Assembly (NCBI GenBank): GCA_003168335.1
Contig: PMSM01000002.1
Location: 484,899 to 548,898 of the forward strand
Reading direction: 5' to 3'
Origin: Blastocatellia bacterium
GTDB taxonomy: Bacteria; Acidobacteriota; Blastocatellia; Pyrinomonadales; Pyrinomonadaceae
Length of the DNA stretch: 64,000 nt
Position 1 is the first letter of the stretch, and every line of letters begins with the position of its first letter. The notes under the pieces are model-generated. The model was not told where the DNA came from. It did not search any database and saw only the letters and a list, made by a program, of their open reading frames with translations. Of this stretch, positions 1 through 59,325 are shown in pieces. A program made the position numbers and the translations under genes.

Positions 1-2
1 AA

Positions 3-293
3 GCCAGAAAGCTGCGTTACTACACCGGCGCGATCTACAACAACCTGCGCGAGATGGCGGAAGAACTTTCAATCCTCAAGGAAGGTTATCGCGCGCAGTG
101 GCTGGCAGAGAACCGGCCGTACTGGCTGGACAGTGTTTCAGCTCGCTACGATCAGATGATTTCGATCTGGCTCATGAAGAGCCGCGCGGTGGATGAAGCC
201 CTGCGAAAGTACGAAACGACTTCGACGCTGCCGAACCCGGAGGAATTTGGATTGGGAACGCGGCCGCCAGTCGCGCCGGCACCGAACCGTTAG
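3..293 (+). CDS. C-terminal fragment of an unidentified protein (5' end lies outside the window)
   Basis: Frame 3 is open from the window edge (ARKLRYYTGAIYNNLREMAEEL...) to the stop at 291-293. The visible residues carry no diagnostic motif. Confidence 0.4.
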   Translation, partial: ARKLRYYTGAIYNNLREMAEELSILKEGYRAQWLAENRPYWLDSVSARYDQMISIWLMKSRAVDEALRKYETTSTLPNPEEFGLGTRPPVAPAPNR

Positions 294-300
294 CAAATGC

Positions 301-420
301 GATCCGCGGATTACACGGATTACTCAGATGCCGAAACGAATGAAATGATGATGCCCTTTCGTCGCCGCCTATTTTGACTCTCCACATTCGCGTCTGTGTA
401 ATCTGCGTAATCTGTGGATG
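301..420. repeat. E-type (GATTAC/GTAATC-unit) inverted-repeat element, copy 1
   Basis: Left arm GATCCGCGGATTACACGGATTACTCAGATG, right arm CGTCTGTGTAATCTGCGTAATCTGTGGATG. It ends 10 nt before the start at 430. Confidence 0.75.
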
Positions 421-429
421 AACTGATTC

Positions 430-1551
430 ATGCTCAATAGAGATAATCGTCTCGTCTCGCTCGACGTCTTCCGCGGCATCACGATCGCCGGCATGGTGCT
501 GGTGAACAATCCCGGTTCGTGGGCGCACATCTACTGGCCCCTGGACCACGCCGAATGGAACGGCTGGACGCCGACCGATCTGATCTTTCCGTTCTTTCTG
601 TTCATCGTCGGGGTGGCGATACCGCTCGCTTTTGGCAAGCGCATCGAACGCGGTGACAGCCGTCGCGCGCTCTTCCTCAAAGTCCTTTATCGTTCGGTGG
701 TCATTTTTCTGCTCGGAGAGTTCCTTGCCGGCTTCCCATATTTTCATTTCTCAACGATTCGCATTCCCGGAGTGCTGCAACGGATCGCGGTCTGTTATTT
801 CTTCGCGTCGATCATTTTCTTGACCACTCGGGCGCGCACGCTGGCGCTTATCGCCGTCGTGTTACTGGTCGGGTATTGGTTGTTGATGAAGCACGTGCCG
901 GTGCCCGGCTACTACGTCGGTGATTTGACCAAGGAAGGAAGCCTGGCTTCGTACATTGATCGAAGCATCTTTGGCTCGCACATTTGGAAGCAGGGAATTG
1001 TCTACGATCCCGAAGGACTGTTGAGCACCATGGGCGCGCTGGCGACGACTCTGTTTGGCATACTGACTGGTAACCTGATCCGATCCAAAGATAGAACACC
1101 GATCGAGAAGGTCGCCCACATGTTCATCGCCGGAGTGTGTTGTGTAATCGTCGGCTGGATCTGGAACGCCTGGTTTCCGATCAATAAATCGCTCTGGACC
1201 AGTTCATATGTTTTCTTTACTGGCGGGTTGGCGCTCCAATTTCTCGCTTTGTGTTACTGGTTGATTGATATCAAGGGCTACCAGCGTTGGACGAAGCCAT
1301 TCGTGATCTTTGGAGTGAACGCGATTGTGTTGTTTGAGGGGACCGGAATCATGGCGCGGCTGATGGGCCTGATCAAAATTCCGCGCCCGGATGGCAGTCG
1401 CCCGTCGGTACAGGCCTTTATCTACAACAACGCATACGCATCATGGCTGGCACCGAATCGAGCTTCGCTGGCCTTCGCAATTTCGTTCATTCTCTTGTGG
1501 CTGTTCTTCATGTGGCTGCTTTACCGGAAGAACATCATCATTAAGATTTGA
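430..1551 (+). CDS. Heparan-alpha-glucosaminide N-acetyltransferase-like membrane acyltransferase (DUF1624/DUF5009 family)
   Basis: The N-terminus RLVSLDVFRGITIAGMVLVNNPGSW...W.PTDLIFPFFLFIVG is typical of the HGSNAT-like family. The rest of the 373-aa product has many hydrophobic segments. Confidence 0.7.
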   Translation: MLNRDNRLVSLDVFRGITIAGMVLVNNPGSWAHIYWPLDHAEWNGWTPTDLIFPFFLFIVGVAIPLAFGKRIERGDSRRALFLKVLYRSVVIFLLGEFLAGFPYFHFSTIRIPGVLQRIAVCYFFASIIFLTTRARTLALIAVVLLVGYWLLMKHVPVPGYYVGDLTKEGSLASYIDRSIFGSHIWKQGIVYDPEGLLSTMGALATTLFGILTGNLIRSKDRTPIEKVAHMFIAGVCCVIVGWIWNAWFPINKSLWTSSYVFFTGGLALQFLALCYWLIDIKGYQRWTKPFVIFGVNAIVLFEGTGIMARLMGLIKIPRPDGSRPSVQAFIYNNAYASWLAPNRASLAFAISFILLWLFFMWLLYRKNIIIKI

Positions 1552-1630
1552 TGGGGCGCGGACATCCTTGTCTGCACGGGGTGCGCAGCATGCTCAGCCT
1601 CAGGTTTTTCTAACGGCGCCGGTAGAGATC

Positions 1631-1794
1631 GCGGCTCCGCCGCAGCACATTGCGGAAAGGCTCTGCCTTTCCGGCACGTCTTTTGAGAATTGGTGAGAGG
1701 CTATGCCTCGAACGGAGGCGTAGCCTCCTATTATTTTCAAGGAGTGGTGGACGGTAAGGCGAAGCCTTACCGCAATGTGCGGCGGCATAGCCGC
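1631..1794. repeat. A-type composite palindromic element (BIME-like), copy 1
   Basis: Architecture: [GCGGC-nnn-GCCGC][GCGGAAAGGC-nnn-GCCTTTCCG] ... central GAGGC-nnn-GCCTC pair ... [CGGTAAGGC-nnn-GCCTTACCG][GGCGGC-nnn-GCCGC]. It fills most of the 1552-1795 spacer. Confidence 0.85.
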
Positions 1795-1795
1795 G

Positions 1796-3547
1796 TCAAT
1801 GTCGGACGGTATTACTAACAGGTGGGCCGCACAGAGTGGGCGTTCGATTCGCCGCGCAATACCCCGGCCCGCGCAACACCTGTCCCGCCAGCGCCGGCGT
1901 CCGCTGCCCGTTATCTACTTCGATCTGTCCGTTAACGATTACAAAGTTGATCCCAACAGGATATTGATTCGGCTCTTCAAAGGTTGCGCGATCAATCACC
2001 GTCTGCGGATCAAAGATCGTGAGGTCCGCGAAATAGCCTTCACGAATCAAACCGCGATTCTTCAAACCAAGATTAGAAGCGGGCAAACCGGTCATCTTGT
2101 GAATCGCAAATTCCAGCGGCATCAGATGCTGGTCGCGCACGTAACGGCCGAGGATGCGCGGATAAGTGCCCCAACCGCGCGGATGCGACTTCGATCCAGC
2201 CAACGGACCGTCGGTCGCGCGCGCGCCGCTATCAGTGCAAATGCTGACAAACGGCGACTTCAAAGCGGCTTGCATGTCGCTTTCCTGCATCATGAAAAAG
2301 ATCGCGCCCGTCTGCCCGTGATCCGCGATGATGAAATCAAAGAGAGCATCAAGCGGATCTTTCTTTTCCCCGGCTGCGAATTGCCAAAGCCATTTGCCTT
2401 GCCAGCGTTCTAGATCGCGATTCACGACGGAGCCGATTAAGATGCCGCCCGGTCCACCACTCCCGAGATAAATGTTTTCCCAGGTCTTTGAGTCAGCGCT
2501 GATTTCCCACTTTAAACGTTTGCGCGTTTCGGCATCTTTCAAACGCGCAACCATTTTGTCCGTGCCACCTTCCAAAGCCCACGGCGGCAGGCAAGCGCTC
2601 AATGACGTACTGCCGGCAACGTATGGATAAACGTCGGCGGTGATCTTCAGCCCCTGTCGACGCGCGGCCGCGATGCGGCGGAGCATTTCCGGCATGCGGC
2701 CCCAGTTCTTCTTGTAAGCGGTCTTAAAGTGCCAGATCTCCGCGGGGATCCGCGCGCGGCGAGCGATCTCGAAAACCTCCTTCATCGAATCGTCAATTGC
2801 ATTGGCCTCGCTGCGCTGATGCGTGATGTAGATGCCGCCGTACTGCTGCGCGACTTTCGCCAGCTCGACGATTTCATCAGTCTTTGCGAAACGCGCGGGG
2901 ACATACTGCAAAGAAGTTGAGACACCCAGCGCGCCATCTTTCATCGCGTCAGCGACAAGCTTCTTCATTTGCGCTAACTCAGGCGGCGTAGGCGGACGAT
3001 CGTCGTAGCCAATGACATACTCGCGTACCTGCGTCGCGCCCACGAACGTGCCAAGATTGACGCCGGCGCCCTGTTTCCCCAGCCGCTGAAAATACTCAGC
3101 CAGCGTGCGCCAATCAACCGTCAGGTTGTAGCGCCGGTTGAAATCCTCCTGCTCTTTGAGAGTGCGATCGTTGATGGGCGCGATTGATTCACCTTCGCCG
3201 GTGATCTCTGTCGTTACCCCCATCATGACCTTGCTCATCGCGCGGGGATCGATCAGCACAAATTGCTCTGACTGCCCCAGCATGTCTATGAAGCCGGGCG
3301 CGACTACTTGTCCGCGGGCGTCGATGACGCGTTTGCTCGTCGCGCCGCTGAGATTGCCGACGCGGGCGATCCGTCCGCCTTTGATGGCGACATCGGCTGG
3401 GAAGGCGGGCCTTCCCGATCCATCGATGACGCGCCCGTGCCGAATGATGATGTCGTATTCGGCGGGTGCGGCGGTGCTGGTAGACGGCTGAGAAGACACG
3501 AGAAGCATGGTCGCCAGAGTTACCGCGAGTGAAATTCTGCGTATCAT
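1796..3547 (-). CDS. Secreted N-acyl-D-amino-acid deacylase (D-aminoacylase, amidohydrolase superfamily)
   Basis: Signal-peptide-like N-terminus, then YDIIIRHGRVIDGSG...DVAIKGGRIARVG...VAPGFIDMLGQSE, the D-aminoacylase beta-barrel/metal-site pattern. 583 aa. Confidence 0.75.
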   Translation of the reverse strand: MIRRISLAVTLATMLLVSSQPSTSTAAPAEYDIIIRHGRVIDGSGRPAFPADVAIKGGRIARVGNLSGATSKRVIDARGQVVAPGFIDMLGQSEQFVLIDPRAMSKVMMGVTTEITGEGESIAPINDRTLKEQEDFNRRYNLTVDWRTLAEYFQRLGKQGAGVNLGTFVGATQVREYVIGYDDRPPTPPELAQMKKLVADAMKDGALGVSTSLQYVPARFAKTDEIVELAKVAQQYGGIYITHQRSEANAIDDSMKEVFEIARRARIPAEIWHFKTAYKKNWGRMPEMLRRIAAARRQGLKITADVYPYVAGSTSLSACLPPWALEGGTDKMVARLKDAETRKRLKWEISADSKTWENIYLGSGGPGGILIGSVVNRDLERWQGKWLWQFAAGEKKDPLDALFDFIIADHGQTGAIFFMMQESDMQAALKSPFVSICTDSGARATDGPLAGSKSHPRGWGTYPRILGRYVRDQHLMPLEFAIHKMTGLPASNLGLKNRGLIREGYFADLTIFDPQTVIDRATFEEPNQYPVGINFVIVNGQIEVDNGQRTPALAGQVLRGPGYCAANRTPTLCGPPVSNTVRH

Positions 3548-3624
3548 TATCTCACCAATCTTGTTTCCGGATTTGCAGGACGAGAAATCCTAATCGTTCG
3601 GTTCCGAAGTGTCCAGCTTTGCTT

Positions 3625-3778
3625 GGGAGCGCGGACATCTCGTCCGCACAGCCTGCGCAGCCCGCCCCGTTCCCAGTTCTTGGTGAGTCCTTCGCGCTAC
3701 GCGCTCAATGCGGAACGAGACGAGCACCCCAACGGGGCTGCCCTGCCGGGGACCCCGGCCCGTCCGCGCTCCCAGCTA
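3625..3778. repeat. C-type composite palindromic element, copy 1
   Basis: Left arm GGGAGCGCGGACATCTCGTCCGCAC. The right arm in inverted orientation is GGGGACCCCGGCCCGTCCGCGCTCCC. Confidence 0.75.
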
Positions 3779-3841
3779 CGCGTGGCGCATTTCTGGCGGA
3801 TGACTTTTCCTGATTGACTACGTAGAATTCAACTCCAAATT

Positions 3842-5353
3842 ATGACCGATGCAAACAGAGCTGGAAACACTCAGCCAGTAACGCTGGCAGAGGTTGCCAA
3901 AGCGGTTGGCGGCGAACTTAGCGGCGACGAGCGCGTCCTGGTAACCGACGTAACTCATAACTCGCGCGAGGCGAGACCTGGAAGTCTGTTCGTTGCGATT
4001 CGCGGCGAGCTGTTCGATGCGCACAAGTTTGTGCCGCAGGTAATAGACCAGGGCGCGGTGGGAGTTCTGTCAGAACTGGAAAGACCTGCCGGTTTCAACG
4101 GGGCCTGGGTCCAGGTCGAAGATGTCCGTCGCGCGATGGCCCTGGCGGCGGCCGCTGTCCACCATCATCCCTCGCGCGAGCTGCAACTCGTGGGCATCAC
4201 CGGGACGAATGGGAAGACAACTACCGCTTATCTGGTCGCTTCGATCCCGGAAGCCGCAGGCGAGCCGGTGGCCATGACGGGCACGGTCGAATACCGCCTC
4301 GGCAAAGAGCGTAAGAAAGCCGGACGCACCACGCCGGAAGCGACAGACATGCAGCGACTGCTGCGCCAGGCCGTTCGGATTGGCTGCCGCACAGCGGTGA
4401 TGGAGTGCTCTTCACAGGCGATGGATTTTCATCGTTGCGATGAACTCGACTATGCCGTGGCCGCCTTTTCCAATCTCACGCGTGACCATTTGGATTATCA
4501 CAAGACGATGGAGAACTACTGGTACGCGAAGCAGCGTCTGTTCGACGGGCGGCTCGGGTCCAGACCGACGACTTCGGTCATCAATGTCGATGATCCTTAC
4601 GGAGTCCAGCTTGCGGGCCGACTGGAGCAGGAAGGGCTGCGGGTGGTTCGCTACGCGGTCAAGTCAGATGCCGAGGTCACCGCCAGCAATCCGGAATTTT
4701 CCTTATCCGGCATGCGGTTTCGTTTGCACACTCCCGCGGGCGAGCGCGACTTTCATTCGCCTTTGGTTGGGCCGCCGCATATCTACAACACGCTCACGGC
4801 GGTGGCGAGCGGCCTCGCGCTTGGTTACAGCCTCGATGTGATCGCTAAGGCTTTGGAGAAGTGCACCGGAGCGCCGGGACGATTCGAGCGCGTCGCGCAC
4901 ACAGGCGATTTTGCCGTCGTCGTGGATTACGCGCACAGCGACGATGCGCTGCTGAATGTGCTGCGCACCGCGCGTGAAGTGACGAAGGGCAGGATCATCA
5001 CGGTGTTCGGTTGCGGAGGCGATCGCGACGCATCGAAGCGCGCACCAATGGGCGAGGCGGCAGGATCGCTGAGCGATGTAGTGATTCTTACTTCGGATAA
5101 TCCGCGCACTGAAGATCCAAACAAGATTCTGGCTGACGCGGAAGTCGGCATTCAAAAGACCGGCAAGCCTTACGAAAAGATCGCCGATCGCCGCGCAGCA
5201 ATCAATCACGCCATCGCGCAGGCCCGCACTGACGATCTGGTTCTGATCGCCGGCAAAGGTCACGAGGATTATCAGATCATCGGGCGCGAAGTTTTTCACT
5301 TTGATGACAAAGAAGTCGCGCGTGAAGCGCTGGCCGAGAACCGCTCGCGGTAA
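3842..5353 (+). CDS. murE: UDP-N-acetylmuramoyl-L-alanyl-D-glutamate--2,6-diaminopimelate ligase
   Basis: Mur ligase P-loop GITGTNGKTTT, DYAHSDDAL, GCGGDRD and the DAP-specific motif SDNPRTEDP. 503 aa. Confidence 0.9.
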   Translation: MTDANRAGNTQPVTLAEVAKAVGGELSGDERVLVTDVTHNSREARPGSLFVAIRGELFDAHKFVPQVIDQGAVGVLSELERPAGFNGAWVQVEDVRRAMALAAAAVHHHPSRELQLVGITGTNGKTTTAYLVASIPEAAGEPVAMTGTVEYRLGKERKKAGRTTPEATDMQRLLRQAVRIGCRTAVMECSSQAMDFHRCDELDYAVAAFSNLTRDHLDYHKTMENYWYAKQRLFDGRLGSRPTTSVINVDDPYGVQLAGRLEQEGLRVVRYAVKSDAEVTASNPEFSLSGMRFRLHTPAGERDFHSPLVGPPHIYNTLTAVASGLALGYSLDVIAKALEKCTGAPGRFERVAHTGDFAVVVDYAHSDDALLNVLRTAREVTKGRIITVFGCGGDRDASKRAPMGEAAGSLSDVVILTSDNPRTEDPNKILADAEVGIQKTGKPYEKIADRRAAINHAIAQARTDDLVLIAGKGHEDYQIIGREVFHFDDKEVAREALAENRSR

Positions 5354-5368
5354 CGGATGCCAGTGCTT

Positions 5369-5533
5369 GCGGCTTTGCCGCCCGAGGTGCGGAAAGCCTT
5401 TGGCTTTCCGTGAACGCCGGAAGTTGCGGAGGCTACGCCTCCCACACACTCGCGAGGCGTAGCCTCGCTGAATTCTCCAGGTAAGAGCATCGGAAAGGCA
5501 GAGCCCTTCCGCACATCAGGCGGCATAGCCGCC
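5369..5533. repeat. A-type composite palindromic element, copy 2
   Basis: Same architecture. Left arm GCGGCTTTGCCGCCCGAGGTGCGGAAAGCCTTTGGCTTTCCG, centre GAGGCTACGCCTC...GAGGCGTAGCCTC, right arm CGGAAAGGCAGAGCCCTTCCGCACATCAGGCGGCATAGCCGCC. Confidence 0.9.
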
Positions 5534-5544
5534 GCCTTTGGCTC

Positions 5545-6861
5545 ATGAAAACAAATTCAGCCGCAACCCCAAAGACCTCGCCCGAAGGCCTGCTCCGCGG
5601 TATCCGCAAGTGGGACCTGGTGGCGGTGGCCATCAACGGCATTATCGGCGCTGGGATTTTTGGTTTGCCGGCGAAAGTCTATGCACTGATCGGAACGTAC
5701 AGTCTGATCGCGTTCGTAGCTTGCGCGATCGTCGTCACCCTGATCATCCTTTGTTTCGCTGAGGTCGGTAGTCGTTTCGACGAAACGGGCGGACCATACC
5801 TTTACGCGCGGGAGGCATTCGGTCCAACCGTGGGTTTCGAAGTCGGCTGGCTGAGCTGGTTGGCGCGGCTGACGGCGTTTGCCGCTAACTGCAACCTGAT
5901 GGTGAGCTATCTGGCCTTCTTTTGGCCCGGCGCCAGTGCTCCGCTTCAGCGAGCAATCATCATCACCGTGGTCGTCATTTCGCTGGCCGCGATCAATTTC
6001 ATCGGCGTGCGCCAGGCGGCGATTGCCAGCGATTTCTTCACCATCGGCAAGCTGATCCCGCTGCTAATTTTCGTCGCAGCAGGACTCTTCTTTCTCAGGC
6101 CGAACGCTTATGCCTTTGGTCCTCGACCGTCCGCCGGCGCGTTTTCACAATCGGTCTTGCTACTCATTTTTGCTTTCACCGGATTCGAGATGGCGGCGAT
6201 CCCGGCCGGCGAGGTGCGCGATCCACGCCGCAATTTACCGCGAGCGCTACTTATCGCCACCGGAGTAGTCGCCACGACTTACATTCTGGTTCAGATCGTT
6301 TGCGTCGGGACGCTGCCACAGTTGGCGAGTTCGACCAAACCGCTGGCCGACGCGGCGCAAAACTTCATGGGCACAGCCGGCGCCGCAATCATTTCCGCCG
6401 GAGCGATCATTTCGATCGCCGGGAACTTGAACATTCTGGTCCTTTCGGGATCGCGTCTGCCGTTCGCTTTCGCCGAGCAGAAACAATTGCCCCAGTTGGT
6501 TGCCCGTATCCATCGCCGATTCCTGACGCCGCACGTCGCGATCGCGATCACTGCATCGGCGATGTTGATACTGACGCTGAAAAGTTCGTTTGTCGCAGCT
6601 TTGACAATTAGCGCCATCGCCCGGCTGGTTACTTATGCGGTGACTTGTGCCGCGCTCCCAGTGTTGCGGCGGCGGACGGGAGTGCCGGCTGCGATGTTCC
6701 GAGTTCGCGGCGGGCCGATCATCGCGGTGGCCGCGTTAATCCTCGCGGTTTGGCTGCTGGCGAATAGCACTTTGAGAGAGGCTTATCAGGCGGGGATCGC
6801 TGCATTGGTCGGGTTGGTGATCTACTTTGCTTATCGAACCTATCGGACACGCGCTTCCTGA
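5545..6861 (+). CDS. APC-family amino acid permease
   Basis: 438-aa polytopic protein. N-terminal WDLVAVAINGIIGAGIFGLPA is the APC signature region. Confidence 0.8.
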   Translation: MKTNSAATPKTSPEGLLRGIRKWDLVAVAINGIIGAGIFGLPAKVYALIGTYSLIAFVACAIVVTLIILCFAEVGSRFDETGGPYLYAREAFGPTVGFEVGWLSWLARLTAFAANCNLMVSYLAFFWPGASAPLQRAIIITVVVISLAAINFIGVRQAAIASDFFTIGKLIPLLIFVAAGLFFLRPNAYAFGPRPSAGAFSQSVLLLIFAFTGFEMAAIPAGEVRDPRRNLPRALLIATGVVATTYILVQIVCVGTLPQLASSTKPLADAAQNFMGTAGAAIISAGAIISIAGNLNILVLSGSRLPFAFAEQKQLPQLVARIHRRFLTPHVAIAITASAMLILTLKSSFVAALTISAIARLVTYAVTCAALPVLRRRTGVPAAMFRVRGGPIIAVAALILAVWLLANSTLREAYQAGIAALVGLVIYFAYRTYRTRAS

Positions 6862-6954
6862 GTCACGCGGGCGCTCTCGGCAAATCCGGCGCGTGGTGTA
6901 TGATCCCGTCATTCGCAAAAATGGGACAGCGACTCTCGACGATAGCTCTCAGCA

Positions 6955-9933
6955 ATGGCCATAAGCCCTCAACAGATTGGAAAGCAAGACGCGCTGATCA
7001 AAGAGCTTCGCAAAATTGTCGGTCGCGAAAATGTTCTGGCTGAGCCCGAAGAGCTGCTCGTCTATGAATGCGATGGCTTGCCTCAGCACAAACATCCGCC
7101 CCGCGCCGTAGTCTTCCCGACCTCAACTGAAGAAACTTCGGAAGTCCTCAGCCTGCTCTCGGAAGAAGGGGTGAGTTTCGCGCCGCGTGGGGCGGGCACA
7201 GGACTTTCCGGTGGCGCGCTCGCAGTCGATCGTGGGGTGGTGATCGAGCTTGCCCGCATGCGCGCGATTTTGAAAATCGACACTGAAAATCGCCTGGCCG
7301 TAGTCCAGACTGGACTGGTGAACGCGCATCTTTCGCGCGCGGTCGCACCGTACGGCCTTTACTATGCGCCCGATCCTTCGAGCCAACCTTCGTGCACGAT
7401 TGGAGGGAACATCGCCGAGAACGCCGGCGGTATTCATTGCTTGAAATATGGCACCACAACTGATCACGTGGTCGGCGCTCGAGTGGTCCTGGCCGACGGT
7501 TCTGTCGTCGATCTCGGCGGAGGTTCGCCCGGCTATGATCTGCTCGGTGTCTTCGTGGGCTCGGAAGGGACGTTTGGGATCGCGACCGAGGCGACCGTGA
7601 AACTTTTGCCGGTTCCGCCGGCGGTGCGGACGCTACTGGCTGACTTTACTGATGTTGATGATGCCAGCCGCGCGGTCTCAGCAATTATTTCGGCGGGCAT
7701 GCTGCCGGCCGCGCTGGAAATGATGGACAACGCGATCATCCGCGCCGTCGAAGCCAGTATCTTCGCCGCCGGATTACCTGTAGATGCCCAGGCAGTCCTG
7801 CTCCTCGAGTTAGACGGCATCGAAGCCGGCATCGATGATGACGCGGCGCAGGCTGAAAGCATTCTGAGCCACCACGGCGCGCGTTCAGTGCGTCGCGCGA
7901 CGGATCCGAACGAGAGAAATAAACTTTGGGCCGCGCGCAAAGGAGCGTTCGGCGCCGTCGGTCGTTTAAGTCCCGACATCATGATTCAAGATGCGGTCGT
8001 GCCGCGCTCGCGTCTTCCCGAAGTCCTCGCTGAAACTTATCGCATCAGCGCGCACTACAACCTGCAACTGGCGAACGTGTTCCATGCTGGTGATGGCAAT
8101 CTGCATCCGCTGATCTGTTTTGACCTGCGTCGCGGTGACGATCTCGAACGGGTGCGGCAAGCCGGGCGCGAGATCATGGAAACCTGTGTGCGCGCCGGCG
8201 GTTCAATCACCGGAGAGCACGGTGTCGGCCTCGATAAGATCAGCTACCTGCCTTTGATTTTCAGCGATGATGACATGGACGCGATGCTGCAAGTGCGTGC
8301 CGCGTTCGATCCTTCGGGGCTGTGCAATCCCGGCAAGATTATTCCGTTGCCGCGTGGATGCGGCGAAGCACGGGCGGTGGCGACTCAACCAGTGTCGGAA
8401 CCGGGAGCGGACCGGGGTCCCCAAGCGGGCAGCCCGGTGGTGGATGCGACCGGGTCAAAGCTGGGAGCATCTCATCCGCAAAGGCGCGACAACTCGACCA
8501 GTTCGACAAGCTTAAGTTCGTCGGACGCCCCGCGTGACCGAACCGCACAGAAGCACGCTCTGATTTCCACCAAACTTAATGAAGCGAGGATTGCCCGCGA
8601 ATTCTCGCGCATCGTCGGCGACCAAAGCGTGCGTAGACTTTCAGATTCCATTGCGACTTCGCAAAGCACCGCGCCGGCTGCGGGGCGATCACTTGAACGA
8701 TTCCTTGAAGTAGCGCCGCAATCGACGGAAGCCGCTGCTCAAGTGATGCAACTGGCTATGAAGCAAGACCTGGCCGTGGTTCCGGCTGGGGCGGCTACCT
8801 GGATCGATGTCGGCAACCTTCTCAGTCGTTCGGATTTATTAGTTACGACGCGGCGCATGACCCGAGTGCTGAAGCACGAGCCGGCGGATCTGGTCGCCAC
8901 CGCGGAAGCCGGGTTGACACTCAACAGTTTTCAAGAGCACCTGGCGCAAGCGGGACAGTGGTTGCCGATTGATCCGCCTGATGATGCCAATGGTGGACGC
9001 GCCACCCTGGGCGGCGTGGTCGCTACCGGATTGGGCGGCCCCCACAGTTTCGGTTTTGGCTTGCCCAGGTCATTCGTGATTGGCATGAGGGTGGTGCTCT
9101 CCGATGGCCGCGCGATCAAAGCCGGAGGGAGTGTCGTCAAAAATGTTGCGGGCTATGATCTTTGTAAACTATTCACTGGAAGTTACGGGACGCTGGGCTT
9201 AATCACTGAGTTGACCTTCAAGCTGCGACCGCTGCCGGCCGAAAGCCGAACCGTCATGGCTTCGGGATCACTGGCGTCGCTGATCAACGCAGGCCGCAAG
9301 GTCTACAGTAAGTTCGCCCCGGTCGCCATTGAATTAATCTCCAGCCGCCTGGCGAAAGATTTGGAAATCGTAAACGAGCTTGAGACTGCCTTGATGATGC
9401 GATTTGTTGGATCGGCGCGGTCGGTTGTGGCGCAAACTGCACAGGCCCTCAAACTTTTCCGTGACGATGGTGTTCGGTGCGCAACGCTCGATGAGGAGTC
9501 TCAGCCGTGGAGCAAATTGAGCGCCGTGCCTTTGCAGTCTCACGACGATCTGAGGTGGCGGGTCGCTTTGCGACCTACCGATCTGGTTTCCTTTCTGAGC
9601 GACATAAGTGCCCTGGAAAATGATGAAGCGTCGCACTTAGGGCTGCGCTGGCATGCCGGGTTGGGCGATGGCCGCCTGCGCGCAATTGCTCGTGCTCCGG
9701 TGTATCATCGCGAAGCCGTGCGCGCCCTGGAACGTCTCCGGCAGAAAGCCGAAAGCCTCGGCGGCAGCCTGGTCGTTGAAAGCGCGCCAATCGAGATCAG
9801 GAATGAATTCGATGCCTGGGGCGATTTTGGTTCGGTGGCTGAGTTGATGCAGCGAATTAAGCTTGAGCTCGACCCACAGAATTTACTGTCGCCGGGGCGA
9901 TTTGGTCGCGGGGACGGAAGGACAATCAGGTAG
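6955..9933 (+). CDS. glcDE: Fused FAD-linked glycolate oxidase subunits GlcD (N-terminal) and GlcE (C-terminal)
   Basis: The N-terminal ~465 aa have the GlcD pattern (FAD-binding PCMH domain RGAGTGLSGGA, C-terminal GEHGVG...CNPGKIIP). A low-complexity linker of ~70 aa follows, then a second PCMH FAD-binding domain (VVPAGAATW...VKNVAGYDLCKLFTGSYGTLG) typical of GlcE. Confidence 0.85.
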   Translation: MAISPQQIGKQDALIKELRKIVGRENVLAEPEELLVYECDGLPQHKHPPRAVVFPTSTEETSEVLSLLSEEGVSFAPRGAGTGLSGGALAVDRGVVIELARMRAILKIDTENRLAVVQTGLVNAHLSRAVAPYGLYYAPDPSSQPSCTIGGNIAENAGGIHCLKYGTTTDHVVGARVVLADGSVVDLGGGSPGYDLLGVFVGSEGTFGIATEATVKLLPVPPAVRTLLADFTDVDDASRAVSAIISAGMLPAALEMMDNAIIRAVEASIFAAGLPVDAQAVLLLELDGIEAGIDDDAAQAESILSHHGARSVRRATDPNERNKLWAARKGAFGAVGRLSPDIMIQDAVVPRSRLPEVLAETYRISAHYNLQLANVFHAGDGNLHPLICFDLRRGDDLERVRQAGREIMETCVRAGGSITGEHGVGLDKISYLPLIFSDDDMDAMLQVRAAFDPSGLCNPGKIIPLPRGCGEARAVATQPVSEPGADRGPQAGSPVVDATGSKLGASHPQRRDNSTSSTSLSSSDAPRDRTAQKHALISTKLNEARIAREFSRIVGDQSVRRLSDSIATSQSTAPAAGRSLERFLEVAPQSTEAAAQVMQLAMKQDLAVVPAGAATWIDVGNLLSRSDLLVTTRRMTRVLKHEPADLVATAEAGLTLNSFQEHLAQAGQWLPIDPPDDANGGRATLGGVVATGLGGPHSFGFGLPRSFVIGMRVVLSDGRAIKAGGSVVKNVAGYDLCKLFTGSYGTLGLITELTFKLRPLPAESRTVMASGSLASLINAGRKVYSKFAPVAIELISSRLAKDLEIVNELETALMMRFVGSARSVVAQTAQALKLFRDDGVRCATLDEESQPWSKLSAVPLQSHDDLRWRVALRPTDLVSFLSDISALENDEASHLGLRWHAGLGDGRLRAIARAPVYHREAVRALERLRQKAESLGGSLVVESAPIEIRNEFDAWGDFGSVAELMQRIKLELDPQNLLSPGRFGRGDGRTIR

Positions 9934-10097
9934 CGGCTTCGTCGCCCCGATGTGCGGAAAGCCTATGGCTTTCCGGCAGTCATTACTAGAAGATTTCAGA
10001 GGCTACGTCTCTGAACGCGAGGCGTAGCCTCACGAGATAAGACAAGGGACGCGCGCCGGAAAGGCAGAGCCTTTCCGCACATCAGGCGGCAGAGCCG
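9933..10097. repeat. A-type composite palindromic element, copy 3
   Basis: Same architecture, lying between the glcDE stop and the ggt start. Confidence 0.9.
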
Positions 10098-10125
10098 TTT
10101 TCTAAACCGAGCGAGAGGAATTTTG

Positions 10126-11889
10126 ATGATGAGAGTGACCAGAACTCGCGGAACTATTCGGCTAATCACGACAGCTATTCTTTCTGTCGCGATCACAGCA
10201 TCGCTGACCTTCCAGCCAGACCATGGCATTACTACCCACGCCGCCTCGCGCGAACCCGTGCGGGCGCGGCACGGAGTGGTCGCCGCGACGAATGAGATCG
10301 CTTCGAACGTGGGCGTGGACATCATGAAGCGCGGTGGCAACGCCGTCGATGCCGCGATCGCAGTTGCTTTCGCGTTGGCGGTAACACATCCGGCCGCCGG
10401 CAACCTGGGTGGTGGCGGCTTTATGATGATTCGCTTGAAGGATGGACGCACCACCGCGATTGACTATCGCGAGATGGCGCCCGCCGCTGCGACCCGCAAC
10501 ATCTATCTGGATCAGAACGGAAATGTAATCGAAGGCGAAGGCGGTTCGATCGAAGGGTATCGTGCCGCGGGCGTTCCGGGCACCGTGCGCGGAATGGAAT
10601 TGGCGCTGAAGAAATACGGCTCAGGCAAACTTACCTGGACTCAATTGATTGAACCCGCGCGGCGCCTGGCGGCCAATGGTTTCACGGTCAACTACAATCT
10701 GTCGCGTTCGTTGCGTGGAAGTCGTGAATACCTTTCAAAGTACGCCGAGACAAAACGCATCTATCTAAACAACGGCAAGTTCTACAATGAAGGTGATGTG
10801 TTTGTGCAGCCCGATCTCGCGGCTACGTTTGCGCGTTTGCAGCAACGCGGACCTAATGAATTCTATAAAGGACATACGGCGCAGTTGATTGCCGCGGACA
10901 TGAAACGTCACCAGGGCCTGCTCACTTTGGACGATCTGCGCGGATACGTTGCCAAAGAACGCCAACCTTTGCGCGGCAATTATCGTGGTTACGAAGTGAT
11001 TTCGATGCCTCCGCCTTCATCCGGCGGCGCCGTGCTGATCGAGATGCTCAACATCCTGGAGGGATACGATTTCAAGAAGATGGACTGGGCGTCTTCAGAT
11101 CGCTATCACCTGATGACGGAAGCCATGCGCCGGGCGTTTGCCGACCGCGCGGAGTACATGGGCGACACCGATTTTGCGAAAGTGCCGATAGCGGGTTTGA
11201 TAGATAAAAAGTACGCCGCGCAACTGCGCACAACCATCAACCCCGAACGCGCTTCGTCGAGCGAACAAGTGAAGGCCGGGAAGCCAGCCGGTTATGAATC
11301 AGAAGAGACCACACACTTCACCGTCGTCGATACGGATGGGAACGCGGTCGCGAACACTTACACGCTGAATAATTCGTACGGCTCGGCGGTGGTGGCAAAA
11401 GGGACTGGTCTCATCATGAATGACGAGATGGACGACTTTGCCGCCAAGCCCGGCACGGCTAATCTCTACGGCCTGATCCAGGGCGAGCGCAACGCCGTCG
11501 CTCCGCGCAAACGCCCCCTGTCCGCGATGACGCCGACGTTTGTGCTGCGCAAAGACGGCAGCCTCTGGTTCACGGTGGGCAGTCCCGGTGGGCCAACCAT
11601 CATTAACACCGTCCTCGATGTGATCACGAACGTGATCGACTACGGCATGAATATTCAGCAGGCCATTGATGCGCCGCGCATCCATCATCAATGGCTGCCG
11701 GACGAGTTGGTCTTCGAGCCCTACGGATTGTCAGGGGACACACAGAACGCCTTGATCGCTCGCGGCCACAAGCTCGCGAAGCCCCGTTACCTGGGCGATG
11801 CCGAAGGGATCATGATTGAAGAAAAAACGGGCATGCGTTTGGGTGCGACTGATCCACGACGGAGTGATGGGTTGGCGGTTGGGTATTAG
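10126..11889 (+). CDS. ggt: Gamma-glutamyltranspeptidase
   Basis: Signal peptide, GGNAVDAAIA, GNLGGGGFM, and the autoprocessing/catalytic Thr context EETTHFTVVDTDGNAV, plus GSPGGPTII. GAGAGGA lies 7-8 nt upstream of ATG 10126 (the ORF track starts at TTG 10123). Confidence 0.9.
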   Translation: MMRVTRTRGTIRLITTAILSVAITASLTFQPDHGITTHAASREPVRARHGVVAATNEIASNVGVDIMKRGGNAVDAAIAVAFALAVTHPAAGNLGGGGFMMIRLKDGRTTAIDYREMAPAAATRNIYLDQNGNVIEGEGGSIEGYRAAGVPGTVRGMELALKKYGSGKLTWTQLIEPARRLAANGFTVNYNLSRSLRGSREYLSKYAETKRIYLNNGKFYNEGDVFVQPDLAATFARLQQRGPNEFYKGHTAQLIAADMKRHQGLLTLDDLRGYVAKERQPLRGNYRGYEVISMPPPSSGGAVLIEMLNILEGYDFKKMDWASSDRYHLMTEAMRRAFADRAEYMGDTDFAKVPIAGLIDKKYAAQLRTTINPERASSSEQVKAGKPAGYESEETTHFTVVDTDGNAVANTYTLNNSYGSAVVAKGTGLIMNDEMDDFAAKPGTANLYGLIQGERNAVAPRKRPLSAMTPTFVLRKDGSLWFTVGSPGGPTIINTVLDVITNVIDYGMNIQQAIDAPRIHHQWLPDELVFEPYGLSGDTQNALIARGHKLAKPRYLGDAEGIMIEEKTGMRLGATDPRRSDGLAVGY

Positions 11890-30692: not shown

Positions 30693-30940
30693 GAAGCGCC
30701 AACGGCGCGCAATGCAATAGCCTGGGGCAACGCCCCAGGATTGGGAATCCCCACGTGAAACAAAGCGCTGAAAGCGCGAAATAGACGTTGAAGGTTGTTC
30801 TTTCGATCTATTAGGTCGACGGTTTATGTTCGCCGTTTGATGCGCACGTTTCATGTCGCGCTTTCAGCGCTTGCGTGTTCTCTGATTGTCTACCTGGGGC
30901 GTTGCCCCAGGCTATTACATTTCGCGCCTTCGGCGCTTAA
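30693..30940. repeat. F-type ~250-bp composite inverted repeat, copy 1
   Basis: The left half is GAAGCGCC-AAC-GGCGCGCAATGCAATAGCCTGGGGCAACGCCCCAGG...AGCGCTGAAAGCGCG. It is mirrored by CGCGCTTTCAGCGCT...CCTGGGGCGTTGCCCCAGGCTATTACATTTCGCGCC-TTC-GGCGCTTAA. Confidence 0.85.
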
Positions 30941-33024: not shown

Positions 33025-33052
33025 TTTGAATGAACAACCGCTACCTGATGCC

Positions 33053-33199
33053 GGGAGCGCGGACGGCCCGTCCGCACAGCGCGCATAGCGCGCTCAGTCT
33101 GTCGCCCGCTAAAGCGGGCTCTTCCAATTACAATGGCGCTGATCCCCGGGTTCCGCTGCGCTCCACCCGAGGCTAAACTCTGCCGTCTGCTTCGCAGAC
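33053..33199. repeat. C-type arm followed by a string of short hairpins
   Basis: GGGAGCGCGGACGGCCCGTCCGCAC, then AGCGCGC-ATA-GCGCGCT, GCCCGCT-AAA-GCGGGC and GTCTGC-TTC-GCAGAC. Confidence 0.7.
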
Positions 33200-42496: not shown

Positions 42497-42690
42497 TAAC
42501 CGCGAAGCGGTTAAAGAAAATAGCCGTGGGCAACGCCCACGGATCCTAAGCCATACTATTGTTGCTGACCCTGAAAGGGTCATATCCGTTATGCGACCCT
42601 TTCAGGGTCGGGAATCTCATCCAATCTGATCCGGGGGCGGCGCTGCGCTTGCCCCCGGCTATTGTATTTCACGCTTTCAGCGTGAAGAGG
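42497..42690. repeat. F-type composite element, copy 2 (stems compensated)
   Basis: TAACCGC-GAA-GCGGTTA, AATAGCCGTGGGCAACGCCCACGG, TGACCCTGAAAGGGTCA / CGACCCTTTCAGGGTCG, CCGGGGGC...GCCCCCGGCTATTGTATTTCACGCTTTCAGCGTGAA. Confidence 0.8.
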
Positions 42691-45682: not shown

Positions 45683-46138
45683 ATGCCGGGTTGGCTTAAG
45701 GCATTACTCATCGTTGCCATCGTCGTCGTCATGCTCGTGGTCGGAGTTGTTGCGGGCGGAGGCTACTTGTTTGTGCGCGGCAAGGATGCGCTGATCGCGA
45801 GCAGCAGGGCCATCACCACAGAAGGCACGGACTTTGGCCATCAGACGGACAATCAGGGATGCGTCAACGAATCAGTATCGCGTTATAAGAAAGAGCCCGG
45901 CTTCACCAGCTCGATATCGACGGCCATGTTTCTGACGGCCTGTCTTGATGCCAGCCGGCCAACCCGAGGCTTTTGTGCCGAGGTGCCAAACCAGCGCAAC
46001 TATTCGAAAAGCCCCGTATGGCGCATCGAGCAATGCCGTCACTTCGATCTTGCGTCAGACAAATACTGCCCGGAATTCTTTGGCCCGGTCCAGCAGTTCT
46101 GTGAGCGGACGCTTAAACCAAGCAGTCCCGGGTGGTAA
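45683..46138 (+). CDS. N-terminally anchored Cys-rich protein, paralogue 1 (unknown function)
   Basis: MPGWLKALLIVAIVVV... TM anchor followed by an ~110-aa domain with six Cys. It aligns along its full length with the next gene. GAGGTG precedes the ATG. Confidence 0.6.
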   Translation: MPGWLKALLIVAIVVVMLVVGVVAGGGYLFVRGKDALIASSRAITTEGTDFGHQTDNQGCVNESVSRYKKEPGFTSSISTAMFLTACLDASRPTRGFCAEVPNQRNYSKSPVWRIEQCRHFDLASDKYCPEFFGPVQQFCERTLKPSSPGW

Positions 46139-46280: not shown

Positions 46281-46754
46281 ATGCCAGGTTGGCTTAAAGC
46301 TTTACTCGCCGTCGCTATCGTCGTCGTGCTGCTGGTCGTTGGAGTTGTAGTCGGCGGAGTTGTCTGGTGGTCCCGTAACAAAGACAAACTGATGGGCCGG
46401 GCCAAAGAGGTGATGACCGAAGGCCGCGAATATGGGCGCAACACCGACAACCAGGGATGCGTTGACGAATCCGTCGCGCGTTACAAGAAAGAACCCGGCT
46501 TCAGCAGCGTGATCTCGACCAGCCTCTTCACCAGAACCTGTCTCGATGCCAGCCGTCCAACTCCCGGGTTTTGCAGTGACGTGCCGAAATCATTGGAGTT
46601 CATGAAGAGCGGTGAATGGCGCACGGCGCAGTGTCGACGCGTCGCTCTCTCGACCGACAGTTATTGCAAGCAACTGTTCCAGCCGGTGCAGGAGTTCTGT
46701 GAAAAAAAGGCGCGCACCTCGCGCAACGACAACGGTAATTCAAATAGTCAATGA
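46281..46754 (+). CDS. N-terminally anchored Cys-rich protein, paralogue 2 (unknown function)
   Basis: MPGWLKALLAVAIVVV..., with the same six Cys positions and shared blocks (TDNQGCV.ESV.RYKKEPGF, CLDASRPT.GFC, PVQ.FCE). AAGGGAGA precedes the ATG. Confidence 0.6.
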   Translation: MPGWLKALLAVAIVVVLLVVGVVVGGVVWWSRNKDKLMGRAKEVMTEGREYGRNTDNQGCVDESVARYKKEPGFSSVISTSLFTRTCLDASRPTPGFCSDVPKSLEFMKSGEWRTAQCRRVALSTDSYCKQLFQPVQEFCEKKARTSRNDNGNSNSQ

Positions 46755-49277: not shown

Positions 49278-49883
49278 TCACGGTCTGGGCTCGCCAAAAG
49301 TAACTTGTCCCTTCTCGACCAATAACCTCATAATCCAAATCGTGGACTTGTTTGGATTGAGCTCAAACGAGGTGACGATCCCTTGAACCACTCCGAAGTC
49401 ACCTTCATGTTGACGATCTAATTTGTCCTTAAGCTTGACGCGCTCGAAGGCAAAGATATTGGTCCCTTTCGTGTTCGCAGCCGCTCCAAACAAGTCGCCG
49501 GACCCTTCAACGCAAAACGCATTCATCGGGGCTGGGCACTTTGTCAGGAATTTGGTTGCTGGTAACACGACGTCCTTTCCGACGGAATCAGTGAGAATCT
49601 TTCCCAGTTCTTCGTGCGTCATTGTTCTCTGGCTGACCCTTCCGGCCGACGCAAAGATCAGGATGTAGCGAAGTCGAGCCATCGACTTGTTTTCGTCCTC
49701 TTGCTTCAACTGTTTCAGGTATGTCTCTGAAAGCTCGGCGGACTTGCTCCAATCCTCACCTTCCAACGCGGTATATAAGCGCTCCCATTCCTGTTCGGAT
49801 ATGGCTACGGACTTTGATTGTTGACCTTGAGCTGCCAGGGTGCAGATGGCCAATACTAAGAACGTCAGAACTGCTTTTCTCAC
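49278..49883 (-). CDS. Secreted hypothetical protein
   Basis: Signal peptide MRKAVLTFLVLAICTLAAQG. No recognisable domain. By eye it is more AT-rich than the surroundings. Confidence 0.45.
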   Translation of the reverse strand: MRKAVLTFLVLAICTLAAQGQQSKSVAISEQEWERLYTALEGEDWSKSAELSETYLKQLKQEDENKSMARLRYILIFASAGRVSQRTMTHEELGKILTDSVGKDVVLPATKFLTKCPAPMNAFCVEGSGDLFGAAANTKGTNIFAFERVKLKDKLDRQHEGDFGVVQGIVTSFELNPNKSTIWIMRLLVEKGQVTFGEPRP

Positions 49884-49962: not shown

Positions 49963-50127
49963 CGGCTATGCCGCCTGATGTGCGGAAGGCCTCCGGCCTT
50001 CCGGAATGCTATCTTGATTCACTTTGGGGCTGCGCCCCCCGTTCTACGAGGCGTAGCCTCGCATGAATAGTAGAAGTAAGTCTTGCGGAAAGGCAGAGCC
50101 TTTCCGCACATCAGGCGGCAAAGCCGC
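49963..50127. repeat. A-type composite palindromic element, copy 4
   Basis: Same architecture. The left arm stem is CGGAAGGCC/GGCCTTCCG, and the centre is partly degenerate (GGGGCTGCGCCCC...GAGGCGTAGCCTC). Confidence 0.85.
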
Positions 50128-50135
50128 AAACGATT

Positions 50136-51362
50136 TCACTCCGCCCGTTCCAACGGCGGCAGCACCGCGATGAAATCCTCGGCAAAGCGCCGTCCGTAGT
50201 CATCAAGTAACTCGTTGACCCGTTCGAGTTTTGGCGAGCGCACGATCAGGCCGGCGTGATGTTTCTTCTGCACGCGATAGACGACCTCGGGATCGTTGTA
50301 ATTGGTCGTGTCCGGATACTCCTGTCGCGCCAGCGAAAGAATAATTCCCGCATGTCCCTGGCGCGGCTTCAATTTGATTCGCGCGCCCGAGCCCGCAGCC
50401 ACTTCCAGCCGCGCCCACTCACGCCAAAGGTTTATACCCGACGCAGCTTCCAGAACATCAGCGATATGTGCGCCGCCGACGCGCGACGCAATCTCGAGAA
50501 AGTAGAACTCGCCATTGGTTTCGCTCTTGATGAACTCAGCATGAGTGGCGCCGGCGTCCAATTTCATCGCCTTGATCAAGCGGCGATTAATTTCTGAGAG
50601 CTGCTGCTTGTCCGCGGAGTCATGCGCGATCGTTTGCGAGACGTACGCGCCCCCGCCATGGGCCACCTGCAAAGGCGGCCGGCCATATTTGTTTACGCCC
50701 GCGAAGACAACTTTGCCTTGATCGACCAGCGAATCGACGTGGAAGACTTCGCCAGACACAAACCGCGCCAGTAAATGATACGAGGCGCGCTCGCGCAGAC
50801 TTTCGCGTTTGTTCAACTCTTCAATTACGGCCCAAACTTCTTCAGCACTCTCCAATTTACGAATCCCGATCGCGGAAGCATCGGAACGCGGCTTCAGCAC
50901 CCACGGTGGCGGAATTCGATCGAGATACGCACTAATCTCATCGTTATTGATCGCCGGCACGAAATCCGGGACCTTAATTCCCGCGTCACGCGCTGTGACG
51001 CTCATCGACAGTTTGTCGCGGAAGGTTTTGGCTGTGCTGCTGCTCATGCCCGGCATACACAGGTGTTCGCGCGCCAGCGCGGCGATGACGACATCGAATT
51101 CTTCCAGGGCCACGATGCGATCCGGTCTGGTAGTGCTCGCGATATGGCTGACCAGATCGAGGAAGAGTTCAACCGGCGCATCGTTGGGAACCGCGAAAAG
51201 GTCGGCGAGCGCGTCACGCGGCCAATCTTCGTGCAGCATCTTCTCTCTGGTGATCAGGATGACATTGCAGCCCTGCGCCTGGCATTCGCGCATGAAGTCG
51301 CCGCCTTTGAAAAAGGTGGCGAAGCAAATGATGTTGAGAGCTTTTGTTTGTCCCTTTGCCAT
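50136..51362 (-). CDS. ATP-grasp family carboxylate-amine ligase
   Basis: ATP-grasp core: WVLKPRSDASAIGIRKL, HAEFIK and FYFLEIASRVGGAHI. The start is uncertain, at ATG 51362 or 51398; the maximal ORF to 51470 approaches an intergenic repeat. Confidence 0.7.
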   Translation of the reverse strand: MAKGQTKALNIICFATFFKGGDFMRECQAQGCNVILITREKMLHEDWPRDALADLFAVPNDAPVELFLDLVSHIASTTRPDRIVALEEFDVVIAALAREHLCMPGMSSSTAKTFRDKLSMSVTARDAGIKVPDFVPAINNDEISAYLDRIPPPWVLKPRSDASAIGIRKLESAEEVWAVIEELNKRESLRERASYHLLARFVSGEVFHVDSLVDQGKVVFAGVNKYGRPPLQVAHGGGAYVSQTIAHDSADKQQLSEINRRLIKAMKLDAGATHAEFIKSETNGEFYFLEIASRVGGAHIADVLEAASGINLWREWARLEVAAGSGARIKLKPRQGHAGIILSLARQEYPDTTNYNDPEVVYRVQKKHHAGLIVRSPKLERVNELLDDYGRRFAEDFIAVLPPLERAE

Positions 51363-51499
51363 GATCGAAGTTGCGTCAATATACAACTTTGCTGGCATTT
51401 GGTCAGCAATCGTGTAAACTGGCCGCTCTTTTTGGAGTGCGTGGGGCGCAGCGGCGCCCAGGTCCGACAAACTTTAGGAAACTCTGATCAAGTACTTTC

Positions 51500-53806: not shown

Positions 53807-53822
53807 GAGGCTCCATTCTGCT

Positions 53823-53950
53823 GGGAGCGCGGACGTCCCGTCCGCACCGCGCCGCAGGCGCGCATGTTTTTTCGCTAACATGTAAGAGGTTAATAACCAT
53901 CATCATTTTTCGCGCTTCGCGCTCAGTGCGGACGAGACCTCCGCGCTCCC
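53823..53950. repeat. C-type composite palindromic element, copy 3
   Basis: GGGAGCGCGGACGTCCCGTCCGCAC + GCGCC-GCA-GGCGC ... GCGC-TTC-GCGC + GTGCGGACGAGACCTCCGCGCTCCC (the inverted arm). Confidence 0.85.
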
Positions 53951-55516: not shown

Positions 55517-55524
55517 AAATCTAC

Positions 55525-55596
55525 CCACAGCTTACACGGATTACGCAGACGGCGCTGAAATTAGATAGTGCTTAATTCTATCCGTGTAATCTGTGG
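55525..55596. repeat. E-type inverted-repeat element, copy 3
   Basis: CCACAGCTTACACGGATTACGCAGACGG ... CTATCCGTGTAATCTGTGG. It overlaps the GTG start that the ORF track uses for the APC transporter. Confidence 0.8.
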
Positions 55597-57089: not shown

Positions 57090-57252
57090 GCGGCTCTGCC
57101 GCTCGATGTGCGGTAAGGCTGCGCCTTACCGGCACAGTCAACTTTGAATCTCTCTCGTTGCTTCGAGGCTGCGCCTCGAAGCAACGGAAACAAAGAGAGG
57201 CGAGCCAAGCCGGAAAGGCATAGCCTTTCCGCACATCAGGCGGCGAAGCCGC
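57090..57252. repeat. A-type composite palindromic element, copy 5
   Basis: Same architecture. The left stem is CGGTAAGGC/GCCTTACCG, and the centre is a single extended hairpin GCTTCGAGGC-TGC-GCCTCGAAGC. Confidence 0.9.
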
Positions 57253-58310: not shown

Positions 58311-58330
58311 TTCAGCGACAACGTATTGCT

Positions 58331-58436
58331 GGGAACGCGGGCGCCTCGCCCGCACCAGCGAGGCGCAGCCTCGCTGAATTAGTAAAAGCAACTCCGGAAA
58401 GGCATAGCCTTTCCGCACATCGAGCGGCAGAGCCGC
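58331..58436. repeat. Hybrid element: C-type arm + B hairpin + A-type arm
   Basis: GGGAACGCGGGCGCCTCGCCCGCAC (C-type with a compensated stem), then CAGCGAGGC-GCA-GCCTCGCTG, then CCGGAAAGGCATAGCCTTTCCGCACATCGAGCGGCAGAGCCGC. It ends 8 nt before the PhyH start. Confidence 0.8.
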
Positions 58437-59319: not shown

Positions 59320-59325
59320 CACGCT

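Follow-up and report, generated by a model that had tools for sequence, protein, structure and literature searches.

The ~165-bp composite palindromes in this DNA are, as judged from their sequence and that of their relatives, RAYT-less derivatives of the REPIN type. They are a hitherto undescribed member of the well-known REP/REPIN-RAYT repeats, and the element family is widespread in Pyrinomonadaceae/Blastocatellia. We consider it likely that the composites are non-autonomous, REPIN-like elements served by a RAYT encoded outside the window, by which we mean the whole 64-kb stretch that was analysed.

The window contains 11 arm units, of which ten pair up as five full ~165-bp composites and one belongs to a half copy (Table 1), far beyond chance. 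The five composites can be aligned end to end and share one common architecture. A covariance model of the arm (R1) was built from the 11 window arms aligned in one orientation. An unfiltered R1 search of the entire window recovers exactly 11 arms (56.8-71.4 bits; runner-up 20 bits), arranged as five inverted pairs and one unpaired arm. An initial annotation had proposed five full copies of one architecture at these positions, and both the alignment and the R1 search bear this out. The hairpins themselves greatly exceed their expectation in dinucleotide-preserving shuffles: CGGAAAGGC-nnn-GCCTTTCCG (up to three mismatches) was found 10 times (expected 0.10), GAGGC-nnn-GCCTC 8 times (expected 0.09), and GCGGC-nnn-GCCGC 9 times (expected 0.56). 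According to the ORF list, all 11 arms are intergenic, the spacers that hold them are very short, and the copies lie flush with gene ends, as had been described.

Table 1. Copies of the composite element in the 64-kb window, with R1 scores of their arms and their genomic setting.
Element	Position	Strand	Arm score (bits)	Arms and linkers	Central hairpins	Setting
Full composite, second subfamily, type II linker	1631..1794	.	59.9 and 56.8	left-arm linker CAATGTGCT; right-arm linker CAATGTGCG	1697-1709 and 1715-1727	flanked by converging gene ends (430-1551, +; 1796-3547, -)
Full composite, type I linker	5369..5533	.	66.0 and 66.2	left arm 5369-5410: GCGGC-TTT-GCCGC, CCGAGGTG, CGGAAAGCC-TTT-GGCTTTCCG; right arm 5491-5532	5429-5441 and 5454-5466	spacer between Mur-ligase gene (3842-5353) and amino-acid permease gene (5545-6861)
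Full composite, type I	9933..10098	.	61.9 and 68.6	left arm 9933-9975; right arm 10057-10098	one, perfect, 10019-10031	TAG stop codon of FAD-oxidase gene (6955-9933) shares a base with the start of the left arm
Full composite, type I	49963..50127	.	64.2 and 71.4	left-arm stem variant AAGGCC; right arm 50086-50127	GGGGC-TGC-GCCCC and GAGGC-GTA-GCCTC (50048-50060)	between two minus-strand genes (49278-49883; 50136-51470)
Full composite, type I	57090..57252	.	67.1 and 70.9	left-arm stem variant TAAGG; right arm 57211-57252	single long hairpin around GAGGC-TGC-GCCTC (57165-57177)	
Half element, type I	about 58328..58436	+	69.8	right arm 58395-58436; no left arm	58330-58342 and 58360-58372	stops 7 nt upstream of ATG at 58444

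Two of the copies differ from how they had first been read. The feature at 58394-58436, taken for a solo arm, does contain a right arm, but next to it the central hairpins GGGCGCCTCGCCC and GAGGCGCAGCCTC are retained, so that the whole is a half element. The copy at 1631-1794 had been counted as an ordinary member; it has the common architecture but represents a distinct subfamily, in which both arms carry the linker CAATGTGC(T/G), not CACATC. The copies are not assembly duplications, a concern raised by the same annotation, because their flanks differ and the window locus is present at 100% identity in two independent metagenome assemblies (JGI 3300037261 and ENA ERZ27254062). A search of a plasmid collection returned no match, and the element has no match in Rfam at gathering score. 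At a permissive Rfam threshold, only plant miRNA precursor models matched the long hairpin, far below threshold, and these were set aside as spurious. One shared plus-strand polarity of all six copies, which would hint at a connection with the direction of replication, was considered and rejected: their inner regions align equally well in the same and in the flipped orientation, and the symmetric spacings between arms and central hairpins (63 composites) also contradict an orientation bias.

The arms have a uniform, three-part design. In each, an invariant linker of 8-9 nt joins a 9-bp hairpin to a 5-bp one, and a composite places two such arms, inverted, around one or two small GC-tipped hairpins. 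Read from the inside outwards, the order is a small hairpin (GAGGC, GGGGC, GCGGC or TGGGC, then nnn and the complement), ~17-25 weakly conserved nucleotides, the 9-bp hairpin (CGG-NNNNN-C, loop, complement), the linker, and the 5-bp hairpin GCGGC-nnn-GCCGC. In this reading direction all three loops conform to R-N-A, with A as the third base in 147/150 and 150/150 arms for the two arm hairpins and in 90/92 central hairpins. When its first base is G, this loop corresponds to the GNA DNA mini-hairpin, which is very stable. The inner regions hold 92 perfect small hairpins, compared with 4.5 in shuffles. Across the 150 best arms the linker C-ACATC does not vary; since the loci were picked with a pattern that contains C-ACATC, it is the partner arms that provide the informative evidence. 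The conserved unpaired stretch is CACATC in arms of type I (on the other strand, GATGTG beside the 9-bp stem) and TGTGC in arms of type II. A GTAG (or GT[AG]G) tag at the 5' foot of the hairpins, the hallmark of classical RAYT substrates, is absent from the arms.

The family extends well beyond the window. A 24-nt arm pattern matched at least 115 stretches in species-representative genomes, and among the matches listed (80 records) almost all are Pyrinomonadaceae/Blastocatellia MAGs, of many species. We counted 184 arms in 100 related loci; 223 arms from at least 115 related loci and the window combine into 85 doublets, whose inner distance is mostly 64-89 nt. The two arms of a copy are unlike in 43/63 cases. 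An excess of heterodimers was nevertheless rejected, as identical arms occur in 20/63 copies versus 12.4 under random pairing, an excess that presumably reflects species-specific variants. Arms also occur in tandem, direct-orientation arrays of three to seven units, with a period of ~61-62 or 100-104 nt, which recall clustered BIMEs. Four of these arrays (L205 2498-2915, L144 1478-1732, L166 2799-2970 and L170 789-960) lie directly upstream of RAYT genes; a fifth, detected in a repeat scan (L037 178-428), has no known RAYT.

Compensatory change maintains the stems. Covariation was assessed on 150 arms from 100 loci in many related genomes, a set that excludes the window's own arms. Stem cells are paired (Watson-Crick or wobble) in 98.1% of cases, versus 90.4% in shuffled alignments and 33-49% with slid partners. 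Double-sided changes affect 8/14 pairs and 139 cells, and none of 500 shuffles reaches any of these measures. At least a dozen stem sequences occur, every one with its exact complement. The initial annotation had argued from the few window copies that structure is kept by compensatory changes in the stems, and this now has statistical backing. The minimum-energy fold of the whole element is a single long hairpin in which arm pairs with arm. At the five variable stem positions, however, the two arms of a copy are 74.6% identical, while local pairing is ~98%, so that the local hairpins are the conserved structure. Among ~1,350 main-stem cells there are ~4 G-T wobbles, ~9 A-C pairs and 8 other mismatches. 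As wobble is not favoured among these rare mismatches, the constraint probably acts at the level of DNA rather than RNA.

The same arms bracket a RAYT gene in related genomes. The window itself contains no RAYT by tblastn or by six-frame profile search, in agreement with the initial annotation, which had proposed a REP/BIME-like family that a RAYT with its gene elsewhere might target. In related Pyrinomonadaceae/Blastocatellia, a RAYT flanked by these hairpins, both arms and small central hairpins, was indeed found, which supports that proposal. Five loci identified through the repeat alone have arms 595-725 nt apart that enclose an ORF of ~185 aa. Two of the enclosed ORFs score 92.3 and 88.7 bits with NCBIfam model NF047646 REP_Tyr_transpos (cut-off 80) and also match Pfam Y1_Tnp; both fail the IS200 model (30 and 25 bits versus a cut-off of 55). 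Alignment of the protein family reveals the motifs DHLH and YIHxNP, and motifs of the type DHLH/Y---NP are class 2 (RAYT) signatures (PMC6006769). Among solved structures, the best match of the RAYT profile is E. coli TnpA_REP (4ER8, E = 7e-5); a structure search with a single RAYT sequence gave a lone match to a repeat protein, which is spurious. Public pipelines already label these proteins RayT.

The arrangement around the gene mirrors that of the composites. At locus L099 the order is arm, 17 nt, GGAGGC-nnn-GCCTCC, RAYT, GAGGC-nnn-GCCTC, 22 nt, arm, and these hairpins, arms and spacings equal those at the ends of the window composites. A second set of loci was assembled by protein only: 83 RAYT loci, comprising three exact-protein look-ups and 80 metagenome loci, all from samples other than that of the window. 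The 80 metagenome loci (251 kb) hold 237 R1 arm matches. An upstream arm is present in 65 of the 72 testable RAYT loci, mostly 30-38 nt before the start codon, and a downstream arm in 60/80. Several of the apparent misses have another arrangement or arms detected by the covariance model only; a few have no arm at all. In 63/80 loci a GC-tipped 5-3-5 hairpin directly adjoins the ATG (0-nt gap), and another stands at the end of the ORF in 59/81. Because the ends of the composites share the architecture of those that flank RAYT genes, the composites appear to be the two ends of a RAYT unit joined without the gene. This link is drawn from relatives, some of them with only ~85% nucleotide identity.

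The RAYT gene looks fixed at one locus and vertically inherited. Downstream sequence was sufficient at 56 loci, and at 38 of them the RAYT is followed directly, in the same orientation, by the same 460-aa amidohydrolase gene. These amidohydrolases are 80-95% identical, and the RAYTs are 66-86% identical to the query. It is this recurring neighbour that suggests a fixed, inherited locus, although the contigs on which it is seen are fragmentary.

On these grounds we propose the following mechanism. The element would consist of two inverted, REP-like structured ends, joined where a RAYT gene would otherwise be. A single-copy, class 2 HUH/Y1 RAYT (DHLH, YIHxNP), at a fixed chromosomal locus outside the window, would bind and cleave these ends after reading their local hairpins, and probably the linker as well, in single-stranded DNA. 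Through such an enzyme the gene-less doublets could have spread among short intergenic spacers, been maintained there, or both, with no duplication of target sites.

An RNA-level host element, acting as a terminator, attenuator or 3'-end mRNA stabiliser and tied to RAYT merely by history, is an unlikely explanation, although several features would suit it. Roles of this kind have been suggested for certain enterobacterial REP/BIME elements. All copies lie in very short spacers, mostly between co-directional genes or at convergent gene ends, but the element is symmetric on both strands, and the 49963 copy, which stands among minus-strand genes, resembles the copies between plus-strand genes. 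The RNA fold of the full element is very stable (-100 kcal/mol, z = -9.3); G-T wobble is nonetheless as rare in the main stem as the other mismatches. A hairpin followed by a T-run is found in the 1631 copy and is missing from the other four full copies: a terminator scan of positions 1-11000, which cover three copies, accepted only the centre of the 1631 copy, and sequence inspection of the remaining copies found no T-run after their hairpins. Two orthologous copies are better conserved than the neighbouring coding DNA, which would be compatible with a function in RNA, but such a function leaves both the invariant linker and its match to the RAYT clade unexplained. The terminator or mRNA-stabiliser role that the initial annotation had suggested thus found little or no support.

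An active insertion sequence of the IS200/IS605 type, with a mobile, multi-copy tyrosine transposase gene and miniature derivatives, is very improbable. The composites resemble internal deletions of a gene-bearing unit, as such derivatives would, and like IS608 and ISDra2 the present system combines a Y1 HUH enzyme (here a protein of the Y1_Tnp fold family) with the lack of a target-site duplication. IS200/IS605 elements also have subterminal hairpins that are recognised in single-stranded DNA. Work on IS608 established, however, that their left and right ends lie on the same strand, whereas the ends here are inverted copies of each other. The gene is found beside the same amidohydrolase in 38/56 loci from many populations and is therefore taken as not multi-copy, within the limits of fragmentary contigs. 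In addition, the protein passes the RAYT equivalog model and fails the IS200 equivalog cut-off, and its catalytic motif is the class 2 Y---NP, not Y---Q (motif table of PMC6006769).

A classical MITE, that is, a deletion derivative of a DDE-type IS moved by cut-and-paste through its terminal inverted repeats, would likewise be short, gene-less and present in many copies between terminal inverted repeats, but is the least likely reading, given that target-site duplications do not exceed chance (66 composites), that the sole gene type found between arms is the HUH/Y1 RAYT, and that hairpin modules, not simple inverted repeats, make up the ends.

Linker type follows RAYT clade. The type I linker reads C-ACATC-RR, while arms beside more distant RAYTs carry a type II linker, C-NN-TGTGC-K, and a third linker, CAAGGATT, occurs at one locus. 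When the RAYT proteins were clustered by average linkage into three groups, linker type agreed with protein cluster without exception (58 type I, 11 type II, 1 type III). This points to the linker as a determinant of specificity; as the gene and its flanking arms are physically linked, shared descent could explain part of the match. Within the window, the type II linker is found only in the 1631 copy, in both arms, and the other copies are of type I. The presence of a type II copy beside type I copies suggests two or more cognate RAYTs in the source genome, one for the type I copies and probably a second for the copy at 1631.

The pentamer TGTGC is common to both linker types, on opposite strands (e.g., window 5381-5390 and 1673-1782). 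In type I it precedes the 9-bp hairpin, on its 5' side, along the strand whose loops read T-N-Y; in type II it precedes the 5-bp hairpin, likewise on the 5' side, along the strand whose loops read R-N-A. The type I linker is enclosed by a short inverted repeat, CCGC...GCGG, and thus an inversion of the linker could, speculatively, connect the two types.

A more far-reaching possibility, which we offer tentatively, is that Blastocatellia carry two or three orthogonal REPIN-RAYT pairs. Their specificity would reside in the 8-9 nt single-stranded linker (CACATC, TGTGC or CAAGGATT) and not in a GTAG foot, the tip GGC-R-N-A-GCC would be invariant in all three hairpins, and the copies would persist at orthologous spacers across species, changing more slowly than the flanking genes. 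If true, the family would be a tractable model of HUH enzymes that read composite DNA structures, and an instance of long-term, possibly host-beneficial REPIN maintenance outside the Proteobacteria.

Copies both come and go and persist at orthologous sites. The comparison of orthologous spacers that the initial annotation had recommended reveals filled and unfilled sites among relatives (L060 and L123-L126). The element occupies the Mur-ligase/permease spacer of the window and of L123 (permease 91% identical) but not that of L124-L126 (84-87%), one of which carries a different palindromic repeat there. In the spacer between the FAD-oxidase gene and GGT, the element is present in the window, in L123 (right arm decaying) and in L125 (both arms), and L124 retains one degenerate arm. 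In the syntenic relative L060, the spacer at 58.3 kb contains another palindromic repeat, not the half element. The element-less orthologous spacers of L124-L126 are too diverged to align, and consequently they offer no clean empty site from which the exact ends and the target could be defined. Where both flanks of a composite are readable, 49/66 have no target-site duplication, and the rest have 2-3 nt, which is the chance level. The bases just beyond the outer hairpin are purine-rich, roughly R-A-A.

Conservation of the copies relative to their flanks, an observation on three cases only, varies. The ortholog of the 5369 copy in L123 is 95.2% identical, versus 83-85% for the flanking genes, and that of the 57090 copy in L060 is 91.4% identical, versus 80.6-88.1%. 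A third orthologous copy is decaying (79% versus 89% for its flanks). The two copies that are better conserved than their flanks can be explained by selection at the level of the host, or by gene conversion, no less well than by recent transposition.

The other long palindromic repeat, GTCAGTACC-CC(C/T)GCG ... GGTACTGAC, was seen at L060 5240-5330, L007 4650-4770 and L124 ~5280-5390. It fills spacers that hold the composite element in the window, and in L007 it lies inside a composite. Intergenic spacers seem to be common landing sites for several repeat families.

The family shares its organisation with the REPIN-RAYT systems of Pseudomonas fluorescens and enterobacteria (Bertels & Rainey 2011, PMC3116915; Bertels et al. 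2017, PMC5581495). In both, what is repeated is a pair of inverted palindromic units set a fixed distance apart, with many intergenic copies that persist at orthologous sites. In both, the RAYT, a single gene in the known systems, is flanked by its own units, at a locus that is fixed there and looks fixed here, and repeat families pair with RAYT clades. The differences lie in the ends, a three-hairpin module with an invariant linker (CACATC or TGTGC) here and one GTAG-tagged hairpin there, in the length of the element (~165 bp here), and in the host, a member of the Acidobacteriota (Blastocatellia). In PMC5581495, abundant repeats were tied only to RAYT groups 2 and 3.

The label BIME-like, used in the initial annotation, holds for organisation but not for sequence. 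As with E. coli REP/BIME and TnpA_REP (4ER8; PMC3479197), there are inverted pairs of extragenic palindromes in short spacers within or after operons, and the cognate enzyme is of the HUH/Y1 type, with 4ER8 the best solved match of the RAYT profile. Unlike in E. coli, there is no GTAG foot, there are no Y/Z types or BIME linker motifs, and the repeat sequences are not similar to enterobacterial BIMEs.

Within the Acidobacteriota, the closest parallel concerns TIRtrons and TIRYTs. Di Nocera et al. (2013, PMC3733652) described them from Koribacter versatilis, Terriglobus, Acidobacterium and Granulicella, as RAYT-like genes between inverted repeats without GTAG; some of the repeats are self-complementary, and some form moderate families arranged as dimers. 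The Blastocatellia RAYT profile matches K. versatilis aba 3477 with a probability of 98.6% and ~28% identity. This low protein identity and the different acidobacterial class set the present system apart from the TIRYTs, the repeats being compared by description. The Blastocatellia RAYT also has an extra segment of ~20 aa (DHLKEHGHNASLQKLRHE). In alignments with K. versatilis aba 3477 and aba 1552 this segment has no counterpart, and to E. coli TnpA_REP it is only distantly similar. A full-text search of the literature found no paper that joins REPIN, RAYT and Blastocatellia.

Analyses of abundant REPIN-RAYT populations have dealt mostly with Gammaproteobacteria, and the present one belongs to the Acidobacteriota, a dominant and poorly cultured soil phylum. 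Its richer-than-usual ends, with three hairpins and a linker that track the RAYT clade, suggest a mode of substrate recognition that can be tested. The repeats probably also contribute to assembly breaks in Pyrinomonadaceae metagenomes; many RAYT contigs are ~1-2 kb long, and some arm matches are cut by contig ends. Covariance model R1 can be used for repeat annotation, and the repeats are potential lineage markers.

The window also holds a second, unrelated repeat, at 3624-3665, 33052-33093 and 53822-53863, always as single units. It comprises GGGAGC, GCGGACG-nCC-CGTCCGC, ACA and GCGCGC-ATA-GCGCGC, a layout equal to that of the arms (a long hairpin, then a short linker and a short hairpin whose loop is R-N-A), and may represent a further REP family served by an enzyme of its own. 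Two Acido-Lenti-1 RNAs score above the Rfam gathering threshold (30695-30739, minus strand; 30893-30937, plus strand). They are inverted, ~150 nt apart, and a similar 26-mer lies at 42519-42544. The two RNAs agree with an acidobacterial source. A tandem duplication (45683-45990 and 46281-46588; 598-nt period, 77-81% identity) resembles two adjacent paralogous small genes that begin MPGWLKALL. Comparison with L060 reveals two further differences: one spacer has ~420 nt extra in L060 (L060 2036-2534 versus window 55516-55593), and the window has an extra minus-strand gene (59326-60087, within 59309-60261) that is absent from L060 (6234-6533).
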